From a virus (Duplodnaviria; Heunggongvirae; Uroviricota; Caudoviricetes): a stretch of DNA of 30,282 nt. Both the position numbers and the translations under genes were made by a program. Under the pieces are notes generated by a model. The model saw nothing but the letters and a program-made list of their open reading frames with translations. It did not search any database and was not told the DNA's origin. How positions within the stretch are numbered: position 1 is the stretch's first letter; each line of letters starts with the position of its first letter. The DNA is taken from IMG/VR virus record IMGVR_UViG_2671181050_000003. One strand, written 5' to 3'. Of this stretch, positions 2,960 to 22,726 are shown piece after piece.

Positions 2960-3564
2960 CAGTAAAACCTTTGTCTGCGGACAGGATTGCGGTATGAGGA
3001 GTACGGACTTGTCGCCAGTGTGTCGCGATATGCCCGACGGATACCCTCAGAAAACAGCACAGAGAAATACTGTGCGCGCGACGGGTCTGACCATGAAACC
3101 CCGGTCTGCATGAACAACCGTTCAAGCGCCCCTGCAGCCACTTCTTCAGACCATGCCCGCAGTTCATCCTGCACCTGACGGCTCCCTGCTTTCGGAGCAA
3201 CGGCATAAAGCACACTCACCTCTCCGGGCGAACAGGCAAAATGCATTACCCGCCCCGGGCGGATTTCCACATCCTGACCACCAACGCTAACCACAAAACT
3301 GTTCTCCGCTTCTGCAAGAGCAACCTGTTCTCTTTCCTGCGCCTGCTGTGCCTGCCGCAACTGCTCATCCTGTTGTTGCTTTTTGAGCACACCATCAAGC
3401 TCTTCATGACGAACCCAGACATCCGGAAAGGCCAGCAACTGCCAGGCAAGCGCGCTGTCAACATGCACCGGCTCAAGACGCGGAAACAGTGTACGACTGC
3501 CGGTAAGGGTATCCTTTTTCACGGGTTTGGGGCCGATATAGACAACGGCAATTTTCTCGCTCAT
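2959..3564 (-). CDS. Hypothetical virion structural protein (201 aa)
   Basis: GGGGAA ribosome-binding site upstream of the ATG; Gln-rich central coiled-coil-like segment; position in the structural operon. Confidence 0.55.
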   Translation of the reverse strand: MSEKIAVVYIGPKPVKKDTLTGSRTLFPRLEPVHVDSALAWQLLAFPDVWVRHEELDGVLKKQQQDEQLRQAQQAQEREQVALAEAENSFVVSVGGQDVEIRPGRVMHFACSPGEVSVLYAVAPKAGSRQVQDELRAWSEEVAAGALERLFMQTGVSWSDPSRAQYFSVLFSEGIRRAYRDTLATSPYSSYRNPVRRQRFY

Positions 3565-3578
3565 ATAATTCCCCGGAT

Positions 3579-3601
3579 AAAAAAGCCCGCATGACGCGGG
3601 C
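3579..3601 (-). terminator. Hairpin terminator between the 130-aa and 201-aa genes
   Basis: GCCCGC/GCGGGC stem followed by a T-run on the minus strand. Confidence 0.4.
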
Positions 3602-3614
3602 CGGAAGGTTTATA

Positions 3615-4007
3615 TCAGTATCCCACTACGGTATAACGCAGCAGAACATTCAGGGTACCGGTCGCAGCAGCTGTCTTAATGGTGACCGTAACCAGCTCTC
3701 CATCACTCTGTGTGGTGTACGGCTCCACTGGCACATATTTAGCAAAGCTGGCAGTTACTGCACCACTGTCACCAATGAGCTCATGCTTGCCAGATTTAAC
3801 GCTGACGGTCGCCGTACCACCAAGACCACCTTTTGAAATCAGTTGGATCCCATTAATGCGAACGCCAGTCGGCAGTGAGAGAAGATTAATAACGGTTTCC
3901 TGTTCGGCAGCATTCACTGTAAACACACCTTCTGCCACCGACTCATTACCATGCGTACCTGAATAAACCCGCTCACTCAGTGACGGAGCAAGGATAGTCT
4001 TTGCCAT
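3615..4007 (-). CDS. Hypothetical protein (130 aa), possibly a head decoration or accessory structural protein
   Basis: AGGAG ribosome-binding site; Thr/Val/Gly-rich beta-type composition; sits directly after the capsid gene and is bracketed by hairpin terminators on both sides. Confidence 0.55.
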   Translation of the reverse strand: MAKTILAPSLSERVYSGTHGNESVAEGVFTVNAAEQETVINLLSLPTGVRINGIQLISKGGLGGTATVSVKSGKHELIGDSGAVTASFAKYVPVEPYTTQSDGELVTVTIKTAAATGTLNVLLRYTVVGY

Positions 4008-20341: not shown

Positions 20342-20609
20342 GACAACGCCCTCTGGTTGATGAATTTAACTATCACCACCGTCAGGTGCAAATCTTTGGG
20401 TGGTGAGACGTACAGGGTTTGCACTACCGGATCAACCAACCGGCGAGCCTTTCGGCTCCCCCATACGCCCCACCATAATTCAGATGTGCGTGTGCTTACG
20501 ACAACAAAAAACACGCTCGCGGCGTGTGTCTGTCGCGGTTGAATATCCGGGGTGCAAATCCCGACGCCAGATTTTGCTGGCGTGCGAAGAATATAATCCC
20601 GGATATGTG

Positions 20610-20638
20610 TTGTCGTCAACATACCTTGAATGTATATA
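20610..20638 (+). promoter_or_regulatory. Candidate sigma-70 promoter (TTGTCG, 17-nt spacer, TATATA) for the toxin-antitoxin operon
   Basis: Hexamers read directly; the predicted start site is only a few nt before the first candidate ATG, giving a leaderless or short-leader mRNA. Confidence 0.4.
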
Positions 20639-20649
20639 ACAAATTTGTT

Positions 20650-20991
20650 ATGTTTACTCTCATGAACTACATTATCGAATACTACAGTGACGAGGTTGAA
20701 GCTGAGATCCTTTCTCTTCCTGAGACCTTACAAGCCCGGTACATTCGGTACACGGAGAAAATGCGTATTTACGGAGCTAATCTTGGTTCCCCGCATACAG
20801 AGGCATTTGGCGACGGTTTGTTTGAAATCCGCCTTAAGGGCTCGGAAGGCATAGGGCGTGTTTTTTACTGCACGCTAAAAGGAAAGCGAATCATTATGTT
20901 GCATAGCTTTGTAAAGAAAACGCAAAAAACTCCACCTGCCGAGCTTAGAAAAGCTGAAACCAGAATGAAGGAGGTTAAGCATGACTGGTAA
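20650..20991 (+). CDS. RelE/ParE-superfamily toxin, Gp49-like / HigB-like (about 110 aa)
   Basis: MNYIIEYY...LPETLQARYIRYTEKMRIYGANLGSPH...FEIRLKG...RVFYCTLKGKRIIMLHSFVKKTQKTP fits my recollection of the Gp49-like toxin family; 3' end overlaps the antitoxin start by 11 nt; start is 20650 or 20662 (no ribosome-binding site at either). Confidence 0.7.
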   Translation: MFTLMNYIIEYYSDEVEAEILSLPETLQARYIRYTEKMRIYGANLGSPHTEAFGDGLFEIRLKGSEGIGRVFYCTLKGKRIIMLHSFVKKTQKTPPAELRKAETRMKEVKHDW

Positions 20992-21289
20992 ACGTACCCC
21001 ACCTACCATGACACACGATGAAATGGTAGAAAAAATGTTGTCTAACCCCGCAGTAAAAGCAGAATACGACGCCATCGCCGATGAATTCGCACTACTTGAT
21101 GAAATGCTGGCAGCACGAAAAGAAGCTGGCTTAACCCAGGCTGAAGTTGCTGAACGTATGGGAACAAAAGCGACTGCGATAACCAGAATGGAAAGCAATC
21201 TTGCATCAGGTACAAGCGGCCCATCATTTGCCACACTGAAAAAATTCGCCCGTGCTACAGGGAAAAAACTCCAGATCCGCTTCGTTTAA
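20981..21289 (+). CDS. XRE-family helix-turn-helix antitoxin, HigA-like (102 aa)
   Basis: AAGGAGG ribosome-binding site; helix-turn-helix GLTQAEVAERMGTKATAITRMES; toxin-first operon order as in higBA. Confidence 0.75.
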   Translation: MTGKRTPPTMTHDEMVEKMLSNPAVKAEYDAIADEFALLDEMLAARKEAGLTQAEVAERMGTKATAITRMESNLASGTSGPSFATLKKFARATGKKLQIRFV

Positions 21290-21301
21290 CTCTCCACTAC
21301 C

Positions 21302-21326
21302 GCGCCGTCATTCTGGCGGCGCTTTA
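21302..21326 (+). terminator. Weak hairpin after the antitoxin gene
   Basis: GCGCCG/CGGCGC stem with a 9-nt loop followed by TTTA; poor U-tract. Confidence 0.3.
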
Positions 21327-21343
21327 CCCCAGAGAAATATCAA

Positions 21344-21589
21344 TCACCGGATTACCACATCCCACTCCGGCTCCTGCCATCTCAAATCCGGTGAATCATT
21401 TCTCTCAGGAATAACCATTACGTCCTTTTCCCTTCGCTCCCTTTCTATCGCCATCACAGCCAATGCTGCAACCATGATGTATTTTTGTTCGTCGGTTCCT
21501 GTTTCATAACGACGCATGAGGGTAAACTCGGGGCGATCAGTAACCTCAATGATTTCGTTAATTTCTTTAATTTCGCGAGGAATATCCAT
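21344..21589 (-). CDS. Hypothetical protein (81 aa)
   Basis: ATG preceded by AAAGGAGA; fills the gap between the antitoxin and the zinc-ribbon gene; its start overlaps the plus-strand start at a CCATGG palindrome. Confidence 0.35.
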   Translation of the reverse strand: MDIPREIKEINEIIEVTDRPEFTLMRRYETGTDEQKYIMVAALAVMAIERERREKDVMVIPERNDSPDLRWQEPEWDVVIR

Positions 21590-22262
21590 GGGTTTAGTCT
21601 CCTTTGATATCACATGCCCGCACTGTTTAAAAGAGCGAGCTGTTATTGAGGCATTTGCCGAAAAACAAATTGAAAAAACACCTTTTTTTAACGTCGCTTT
21701 TGTATGCAGAAGTTGTCATCGAGGAGGTGTTGCTATTGTTGAAATCCCATCAGACCACTATCACGGTCCCATGGCGGAAAGCCAGAAAAAAGACCTCGAT
21801 ATTCTGATTTCAGGAAATAGCCAGTACCGTTTCCGCAAGATCTATCCTGTGGTCAAAAAAATTACCGCACCAGAATATACGCCCCCGGTTGCAGACCGTA
21901 CTTTTGTTGAGGCAAAAGAGGATTTACAGAGGAGGCGGTACGACACAGTGGTTATTCTTTGTCGCAGAGTCCTCGATATCTCCACGAAAAAACTGCTCGG
22001 CGATGAAGCAGGAAAAGAATCGCTGTCGCAACGTATTCAGATGATTTACAAAAAAGGCCTGATCACTGAACAGATGAAGGAATGGGCTCATATTGTACGA
22101 ATTGATGCCAATAAAGCAGTTCATACAGATGAAGTTTTCACACCAATTGAGGCAAGCCAGATCCTGAGTTTTACCGAAATGTTTTTAGTCTACGCCTTCA
22201 CTCTGCCTGCAATGGTGGAAGCCAGACGTGAACAAAAAAGATCAGATTCAGCCTCTATATGA
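21588..22262 (+). CDS. Zinc-ribbon protein with a DUF4145-like C-terminal helical domain (224 aa); candidate defense protein
   Basis: Start taken at MGLVSFDITCPHC with a GAGGAA ribosome-binding site. CPHC...CRSC four-Cys pattern at the N-terminus; C-terminal region (...IVRIDANKAVHTDEVFTPIEASQIL...) resembles DUF4145 as I recall it; opposite strand to flanking phage genes. Confidence 0.55.
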   Translation: MGLVSFDITCPHCLKERAVIEAFAEKQIEKTPFFNVAFVCRSCHRGGVAIVEIPSDHYHGPMAESQKKDLDILISGNSQYRFRKIYPVVKKITAPEYTPPVADRTFVEAKEDLQRRRYDTVVILCRRVLDISTKKLLGDEAGKESLSQRIQMIYKKGLITEQMKEWAHIVRIDANKAVHTDEVFTPIEASQILSFTEMFLVYAFTLPAMVEARREQKRSDSASI

Positions 22263-22294
22263 ATCACTTTTCTGAACACGTAAGCCCCCGTCAT

Positions 22295-22726
22295 TCACGA
22301 CGGGGAGAACATCAATCCCTCTGCACTCCCTCGCCAGAATGCCAGCACACGCTGCATCGTTTCGCTGTTACGGCACTCGCGACAAATTGTGTTGTAGCGT
22401 CTGTCGTAGCGCCGTATTTCCCCATCTGGTAATGCCCGGATAAGGTCTGGATCAACGACAACCGGTTTCTTCGACTTTGCCCTTGAGAGTTTTTTGCGGG
22501 CATTTTGCCAGTCCTTACGAGCCTGTTCAGACGGGAATACTCCGTAACCGGAATTGTAAACATCACCACTGGCGGCCAGCTCCATGCATAAACGACCGAC
22601 AGACGCATGACTGACACCAATTTCATCCGATAACTGCCGAATCGTGCCTCGTCCGTTAAGGCGTACGAATTCCACGATCAGCCCCTTAATTTTTTCCCGC
22701 TCTTCTGGTGTAAATGCTCTTGTCAT
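22295..22726 (-). CDS. Hypothetical DNA-binding protein, winged-helix-like (143 aa)
   Basis: GGAGGTG ribosome-binding site before the ATG (MTRAFTPEE...); the track's first codon is a GTG; early-right operon position after the replication genes. Confidence 0.5.
   Translation of the reverse strand: MTRAFTPEEREKIKGLIVEFVRLNGRGTIRQLSDEIGVSHASVGRLCMELAASGDVYNSGYGVFPSEQARKDWQNARKKLSRAKSKKPVVVDPDLIRALPDGEIRRYDRRYNTICRECRNSETMQRVLAFWRGSAEGLMFSPS

Follow-up and report, generated by a model that had tools for sequence, protein, structure and literature searches.

The DNA analysed in this study is a window of 30,282 nucleotides from the Caudoviricetes record IMGVR_UViG_2671181050_000003 of IMG/VR. It contains two genes on opposite strands whose start codons overlap, one encoding a small protein of 81 amino acids and the other a protein of 224 amino acids with a zinc ribbon and a DUF4145/HEPN domain. 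The initial annotation had placed both start codons, each with its own ribosome-binding site, within a single CCATGG hexamer, and this description of the sequence was accurate. It had also suggested that the arrangement reflects either antisense regulation or an open reading frame (ORF) that is not real. The features of the locus are as follows.

21344 to 21589, minus strand: small-protein gene, 81 amino acids, co-oriented with the phage early-right operon
21588 to 22262, plus strand: zinc ribbon and DUF4145/HEPN gene, 224 amino acids, a predicted RAZR/PD-T7-4-like abortive-infection RNase
21586 to 21591: CCATGG palindrome, which holds both start codons
21587 to 21590, both strands: CATG core, common to both start codons
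21588 to 21590, plus strand: ATG of the DUF4145 gene, opening the 224-amino-acid ORF that ends at 22262
21589 to 21587, minus strand: ATG of the small gene, opening the 81-amino-acid ORF that ends at 21344
21577 to 21582, plus strand: GAGGAA, Shine-Dalgarno sequence of the DUF4145 gene, 5 nucleotides before its ATG
21605 to 21598, minus strand: AAAGGAGA, Shine-Dalgarno sequence of the small ORF, 8 nucleotides before its ATG

The two start codons overlap by 2 nucleotides (AT), and there is no intergenic DNA between the genes. The GAGGAA of the DUF4145 gene is embedded in codons 3-5 of the small ORF (I-P-R) and the AAAGGAGA of the small ORF in codons 4-6 of the DUF4145 gene (V-S-F), and the ribosome-binding region of each gene is the exact complement of its partner's. 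By itself, this geometry in a single sequence is not beyond chance, as 9 of the 121 CATG sites in the window open frames of at least 60 amino acids on both strands. Unlike the geometry alone, the conservation of the overlap in related loci does place it beyond chance. In 68 of 68 loci that include the 5′ end of this DUF4145 subfamily, an intact small ORF of 54-93 amino acids starts 1 nucleotide from the DUF4145 start. These 68 loci represent 39 distinct junction sequences from E. coli to Paraburkholderia; a scan of IMG/VR had added 60 loci to the comparison. The initial annotation had named a lack of transcripts or of conservation as what would speak against the minus-strand ORF, and conservation was found.

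In Cronobacter, Yersinia and Morganella the small gene stands head-to-head with the DUF4145 gene on a common CATG, and a Paraburkholderia prophage has the same arrangement though its DUF4145 protein is only 36% identical. Related prophages from at least eight bacterial genera retain the arrangement. A scan of GTDB genomes yielded one real locus (Enterobacter); two archaeal matches from that scan were discarded as spurious (17 residues). The CCATGG palindrome is limited to the E. coli lineage and is replaced elsewhere by CCATGA/T/C or GCATGA, so CCATGG is incidental and CATG is the invariant. In the other lineages, GGGA/GGAG complements corresponding to the DUF4145 Shine-Dalgarno sequence lie within codons 2-5 of the small ORF, and GAGG/GAGA-type counterparts of the small-ORF Shine-Dalgarno sequence are present in most, some of them weak. 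Three other starts were rejected as unconserved, since all homologues start at the CATG (the DUF4145 proteins with MG...): a 248-amino-acid in-frame extension of the plus-strand ORF (ATG at 21516), an 89-amino-acid extension of the small ORF from a GTG, and a 57-amino-acid version of it from Met25.

The surroundings of the pair were equally consistent. In 39 of 39 distinct loci the upstream 2 kb reads in the direction of the small gene, leaving the DUF4145 gene as the only antisense member of a co-directional phage operon; past it, the small gene is the first operon gene. All related loci lie in the early regions of lambdoid or other prophages. The flanking genes vary (DUF977, Roi, BRO-N, lambda-P-like or DnaB-like replication, YqaJ-type recombination), and their wide differences indicate that the DUF4145 gene and the small gene move as a unit. 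In the window, the early-right operon runs on the minus strand (cro, cII, O, DnaC-like, DUF1627, DUF977, then antirepressor and ninB), with the 224-amino-acid gene and a higBA-like pair as opposite-strand inserts. Taken together, these comparisons indicate that the DUF4145 gene and the small gene are a conserved two-gene prophage unit and not an annotation artefact.

The small protein matched an unnamed PHROGs family (phrog_8371, E 6.8e-56). A word-indexed search returned its close E. coli relatives only; an exhaustive HMMER search returned three distant homologues of 43-52% identity from Cronobacter, Yersinia and Morganella, and a profile search recovered 47 clusters from Escherichia, Yersinia, Cronobacter, Morganella, Proteus, Arsenophonus, Serratia and phage metagenomes. 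A recognisable homologue of 60 amino acids was also found in Paraburkholderia. The conserved core comprises about 55 residues, DRPEFTLMQRYE...QK...ALIGKLIE..R (also given as DRPEFTLMxRYE...QK...ALIG..IE..R), and AlphaFold modelled residues 1-55 as three helices, with pLDDT above 90; the tail beyond them is disordered and variable. In an 86-amino-acid variant, helix 3 is extended by an in-frame tandem duplication of 15 nucleotides (GAAAGGGAGCGGATG) that adds ERERM. Net charge and pI across the family are neither consistently acidic nor basic, so they permit no inference of protein or DNA binding.

Selection on the small ORF was judged from comparison between lineages, which replaced a codon analysis within E. 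coli. The close E. coli variants differ by 27 changes (10 synonymous, 17 non-synonymous; omega about 0.44), which is too weak a signal to decide. Between lineages, synonymous sites are saturated (proportion of synonymous differences, pS, 0.74-0.9) and the non-synonymous proportion (pN) is about 0.35. The median omega was 0.30 over 233 pairs with 0.1 < dS < 2, and some pairs reached 0.06. Constraint is uneven along the ORF, with a pN/pS of 0.17 in codons 18-30 and about 0.9 in the tail. Furthermore, DRPEF and other conserved residues use different codons in each lineage, which excludes DNA conserved only as a promoter or leader. This evidence indicates that the 81-amino-acid ORF is a real gene, and the 47-cluster family, the median omega and the confident three-helix model contradict the proposal that one of the two ORFs is not real. 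That the conserved DNA is instead the promoter or 5′ leader of the DUF4145 gene, or an antisense RNA, is very improbable: such a reading could draw on a phage record that annotates only a 57-amino-acid version, on the DUF4145 promoter having to lie somewhere in the small-ORF DNA, and on the weak E. coli signal together with frameshift variants, but amino acids are conserved across lineages while their codons differ, and every paired locus keeps the frame intact.

The 224-amino-acid protein carries an N-terminal Cys4 zinc ribbon whose cysteines (C10, C13, C40 and C43) are invariant across homologue alignments. This is followed by a Pfam DUF4145 domain (E 3.9e-9), a member of the HEPN superfamily (PMC3710099), in which all of 28 homologues keep R171 and H179. 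AlphaFold gave a confident model (pLDDT 88.8), with beta strands at residues 4-52, and the HEPN fold of the C-terminal domain is backed by structure matches, with HEPN toxins among the best (e.g. PDB 7AE2 and 5YEP). The zinc ribbon gave weak RPB9/1QYP zinc-ribbon matches, like those in the RAZR paper.

PD-T7-4, or RAZR, is a recently characterised zinc-finger and DUF4145/HEPN RNase that acts by abortive infection and is activated by assembly around phage ring proteins such as portals; its zinc-finger domain is hypervariable and sets trigger specificity (PMC13017515). The words prophage, temperate and lysogen do not occur in that paper (PMC13017515). Its structures in PDB are 9Y9C and 9Y6U. The window protein resembles RAZR in its N-terminal Cys4 ribbon with weak RPB9-type resemblance, its C-terminal DUF4145/HEPN domain, its length (about 210-225 amino acids), and a zinc-finger domain that is hypervariable relative to HEPN. 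The catalytic R-x7-H aligns residue for residue: in a profile alignment to RAZR chain 9y9c, R146 and H154 fall onto R171 and H179 with identical spacing, CRIVGNQAVH of RAZR aligning with VRIDANKAVH of the window. The PADLOC PD-T7-4 model matched weakly (E 0.0022), a phmmer search against PDB gave no match, and RAZR was not among the top fold matches of the 224-amino-acid model. Since the 9y9c profile match is marginal and RAZR is absent from those top matches, we classify the protein from its sequence and model as RAZR-like in architecture and not as RAZR proper. RAZR also differs in having a native promoter of about 200 bp upstream, whereas the window gene has no upstream non-coding DNA and shares its CATG with the start of a conserved small gene. 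For the window protein, defence and ring activation would be predictions from its likeness to RAZR. Based on these observations, the DUF4145 protein most likely acts as an abortive-infection RNase that would protect the lysogen. Closer relatives of RAZR proper (44-52% identity in the HEPN part) were seen in Streptococcus Javan prophages and in one Vibrio phage.

The two domains of the DUF4145 protein diverge at different rates, with a mean p-distance of 0.51 for the zinc-finger domain (residues 1-60) vs 0.32 for the HEPN domain (residues 100-215). In many homologue pairs the HEPN domain is 5-18% different and the zinc-finger domain 47-67% different, and the latter behaves like an exchangeable cassette between phages. 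In these zinc-finger-divergent pairs the small proteins are only 0-7% different, and on the DNA the zinc-finger segment lies between the small gene and HEPN. Divergence of the small protein correlates better with that of the HEPN domain (r 0.86) than with that of the zinc-finger domain (r 0.64), which is its physical neighbour. This co-variation fits contact of the small protein with the nuclease domain, but may reflect only different evolutionary rates.

The position of the two genes bears on how they could be expressed. With no intergenic DNA, the promoter of each gene must lie within or beyond its partner. Given the operon's orientation, early-operon transcription must run antisense through the whole DUF4145 gene, and the transcript from DUF977, the early-operon gene immediately upstream, must cross it in this way to reach the small ORF. 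Because each Shine-Dalgarno sequence lies in the partner's codons, an mRNA expressing one gene is perfectly complementary to the translation-initiation region of the other. We propose that in the lysogen, where the early operon is repressed, the DUF4145 defence gene would be on and the small gene off. In the lineage of the window, DUF4145 expression could come from read-through from higBA across a weak hairpin at 21302-21322. On induction, strong early transcription would silence the DUF4145 gene through polymerase collision, double-stranded RNA and masking of its ribosome-binding site, and would also yield the small protein, which could neutralise defence protein already present and so keep the phage from aborting its own lytic growth. 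This full mechanism of mutually exclusive, excludon-like antisense-coupled expression is about evenly balanced between being right and wrong. The antisense interference suggested in the initial annotation agrees with the absent intergenic DNA, the complementary ribosome-binding regions and the lone antisense gene, and the regulation itself is our prediction from these features. Its premise that both genes are transcribed at one time is probably wrong, as their orientation suggests expression in different life-cycle states.

The small protein is the obvious candidate for an antidote, or self-immunity, role. Every tailed prophage itself makes portal and ring proteins, and RAZR is triggered by portal-like rings, which together create a need for self-immunity. 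Even so, we hold the antidote role to be possible but rather doubtful. It is likewise unlikely, though worth stating, that the small protein is a dedicated self-immunity factor against the RAZR-like protein and that the shared CATG forms an obligate RNA-level toggle, in which a few dozen base pairs would specify both ribosome-binding sites as complements and allow the RNase (in lysogeny) or the antidote (in lytic growth), never both. If this were true, the locus would represent a previously undescribed class, a prophage "defence plus self-immunity excludon", and the small protein the first natural inhibitor of a RAZR-type HEPN nuclease.

Several observations weigh against a defence gene coupled to its own antidote. 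Pfam and PADLOC scans of the 81-amino-acid protein gave no match, hence no inhibitor-like family, and a Foldseek search of PDB with its model found nothing better than E 4.6. The similarity of the larger protein to RAZR proper is weak (E 0.002 with the PADLOC model, 0.1-1.2 against the 9Y9C chain). RAZR consists of one gene and shows no toxicity by itself (PMC13017515). Many E. coli prophages that lack the DUF4145 gene have kept the small ORF, as an 85-amino-acid variant on 170 contigs, which fits a pure antidote poorly. DUF4145 genes without the partner also exist, namely a subgroup of 212-amino-acid zinc-ribbon DUF4145 proteins encoded in the late region of phages of Enterobacter and Klebsiella, and a homologue in Burkholderia phage phi644-2, which has an ordinary divergent spacer of 92 nucleotides. 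These groups suggest that the small partner is an accessory of one clade and not a universal requirement. Finally, a sigma-70 and terminator scan, with relaxed scans upstream of both genes across 39 lineages, found no conserved sigma-70-like promoter within 300 nucleotides of either gene; a weak sigma-70-like site lies 151 nucleotides upstream of the small ORF in the E. coli lineage.

Several of these points would also be expected if both genes were real but the overlap were a frozen accident. The genes would then be a co-inherited moron block, the overlap would have no regulatory role, and the small protein would serve a phage function unrelated to DUF4145. The overlap would persist only because indels at the junction destroy a start codon or the Shine-Dalgarno spacing, and indeed, with starts that share AT and each Shine-Dalgarno sequence in the partner's codons, any drift of the junction would cost a function. 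The survival of the small ORF without its partner in the E. coli lineage, the DUF4145 relatives that lack it, and scans that gave no promoter or regulatory motif are all in agreement. However, the recent orphan lineage in E. coli is the sole exception to pairing: all other small-protein homologues found have a DUF4145 gene as their partner. The pairing holds despite completely different flanking genes, where an unrelated gene would be expected alone or with other neighbours. Small-protein divergence also follows HEPN across the intervening hypervariable zinc-finger segment, and the complementarity of the initiation regions is physical whenever both RNAs exist. We therefore consider a frozen accident a serious but unlikely explanation.

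Alternatively, the small protein could contribute positively to the defence, for example as a regulator, chaperone or co-sensor of the RAZR-like RNase with its own lysogen promoter, making the locus a divergent two-gene defence system. Strict co-occurrence and co-divergence of the genes would suit this, many defence systems are multi-gene, and the weak site upstream of the E. coli small ORF might supply the promoter. In contrast, every locus places the small gene within the early lytic operon and the defence gene antisense to it, whereas cooperating partners are normally co-transcribed. Moreover, no promoter upstream of the small ORF is conserved across lineages, RAZR works as a single gene (PMC13017515), and DUF4145 relatives exist without the partner. 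A positive role is thus improbable, and we return to antisense-coupled expression as the preferred reading.

In an excludon, divergent genes have overlapping 5′ transcripts and mutually exclusive expression (PMC12288877). The present genes are similarly divergent neighbours in 68/68 loci, and by geometry their transcripts would have to overlap in antisense. Transcriptional interference and RNase III-sensitive duplexes are predicted, with one gene on and the other off. Classical excludons differ in having separate starts and long overlapping untranslated regions, while here the starts themselves overlap and the ribosome-binding sites lie in the partner's codons.

Lambda Rex/Ren and P22 SieB/Esc are prophage defences with self-immunity. 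BstA/aba is another prophage defence with cognate self-immunity (PMC8585504). As in these three systems, a prophage abortive-infection gene, here a predicted one, stands beside an element that would spare the phage's own lytic cycle, and the small gene occupies a ren-like position between the replication genes and ninB. The elements themselves differ: aba lies within bstA as a DNA element, Esc arises by internal translation of sieB, and the sequence of Ren is unrelated. What makes the small gene a candidate locus-linked suppressor is its position, orientation and co-inheritance. The locus also recalls HEPN-MNT type II/VII toxin-antitoxin systems in that a predicted HEPN-fold RNase adjoins a small partner gene. 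However, the partner is not an MNT nucleotidyltransferase and lies on the opposite strand, so it is not co-transcribed. Type II toxin-antitoxin operons are co-transcribed from one autoregulated promoter, and the opposite strands and overlapping starts found here do not allow this. Pfam, PADLOC and PDB fold searches showed no similarity of the small protein to any antitoxin family.

The queried 1,101 bases (21200-22300) are 100% identical to Escherichia phage PhiR5_2 and 98.5% identical to Shigella phage 75/02 Stx, both lambdoid. RefSeq annotates both ORFs in 75/02 Stx (gp19 and gp20) with the same 2-nucleotide overlap; it is the PhiR5_2 annotation that shortens the small ORF to 57 amino acids. 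The pair is flanked by the following elements.

20761 to 21289, plus strand: higB/higA-like toxin-antitoxin pair (Gp49/RelE-type toxin and HTH antitoxin; Pfam Gp49, HTH_3)
21302 to 21322, plus strand: GC-rich hairpin with 9 bp (-19 kcal/mol in context), located just after the small-ORF and higA stop codons
22286 to 22305, plus strand: second hairpin with a 7-bp stem (CCCCGTC/GACGGGG), past the DUF4145 stop and overlapping the DUF977 stop codon
22295 to 22732, minus strand: DUF977 ("Ren-like"/LygF) gene, Pfam PF06163

The first hairpin is followed by only three U on the plus strand and is conserved alongside the small ORF in all E. coli-lineage variants. The sequence CCGTCATTC occurs in both hairpins and nowhere else in the window; at least two copies appeared in 4 of 100 shuffles. 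In phages of the E. coli lineage the two hairpins accompany the two-gene module even where the neighbouring genes differ; other genera lack them. An RNA 3′-end stabiliser, a weak terminator and a recombination boundary are candidates for their role.

The higBA-like pair shares its strand with the DUF4145 gene and converges on the small ORF. A convergent toxin-antitoxin module comes after the small ORF throughout the E. coli lineage; its type varies (Gp49/RelE-HTH, HigB-HigA or TumE-HVO_A0114) and sometimes two stand in tandem, which suggests that the stretch from the replication genes to ninB behaves as a defence and addiction hotspot. Further along, Rfam models matched the minus strand for the small RNA isrK (20506-20583, 75 bits), the C4 antisense RNA (20396-20480, 74 bits) and the a1/b1 target of the latter (20544-20596), and a sigma-70-like site, TTGACG-18-TATATT, lies at 20619-20590. 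The isrK, C4 and a1/b1 elements are all upstream of an ORF6N antirepressor gene (20341-19640), and the region (20396-20619, minus strand) is a P1/P7-type C4-ant immunity module. A 155-amino-acid ORF opening with GTG (20524-20991, plus strand) is over-extended across this module; the HigB start annotated elsewhere is 20761.

In the orphan E. coli variant of 83-85 amino acids, homology to the window breaks at the start codon. It has a GTG start and new N-terminal residues, and it retains NIPLEIKE, the former anti-Shine-Dalgarno codons. Some orphan copies are frameshifted or truncated (48, 70 or 71 amino acids), which may reflect relaxed constraint after loss of the partner. In phiSTEC1589-Stx1c, a divergent ORF of 96 amino acids (MDKKLNQARW...) replaces the DUF4145 gene (positions 3304-3727 of the retrieved stretch); it is separated from the small ORF by a 133-nucleotide spacer with two hairpins, and it overlaps an annotated minus-strand gene of 166 amino acids. 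The genes of the 212-amino-acid subgroup (43-47% identity), which includes Klebsiella phage 2b LV-2017, lie antisense between the lysis genes and terminase, and in some Enterobacter prophages they adjoin an apparent terminase small subunit fragment. A more distant DUF4145 gene (26% identity), in the P2-like Escherichia phage Cartapus (162-860), is found next to the portal gene and the cos site.

HEPN defence genes carried by prophages are already known, as are excludons and elements that confer self-immunity. In the searchable literature, we found no description of the small-protein family or of an invariant start overlap with a RAZR-like gene. For annotation, the present case indicates that short ORFs overlapping the opposite-strand start of a neighbour should not be discarded automatically, as is illustrated by the record that cuts this one short. 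If confirmed, the pair would provide a natural inhibitor or regulator of the RAZR-type nuclease class and a clean model of start-overlap excludon control. A lone antisense gene with a shared-CATG partner in a phage operon could then serve as a signature for other pairs of defence and self-immunity genes. A prophage that carries a RAZR-type gene builds its own portal when it turns lytic and so needs a way to avoid killing itself, and the small gene may be part of how these prophages do so.

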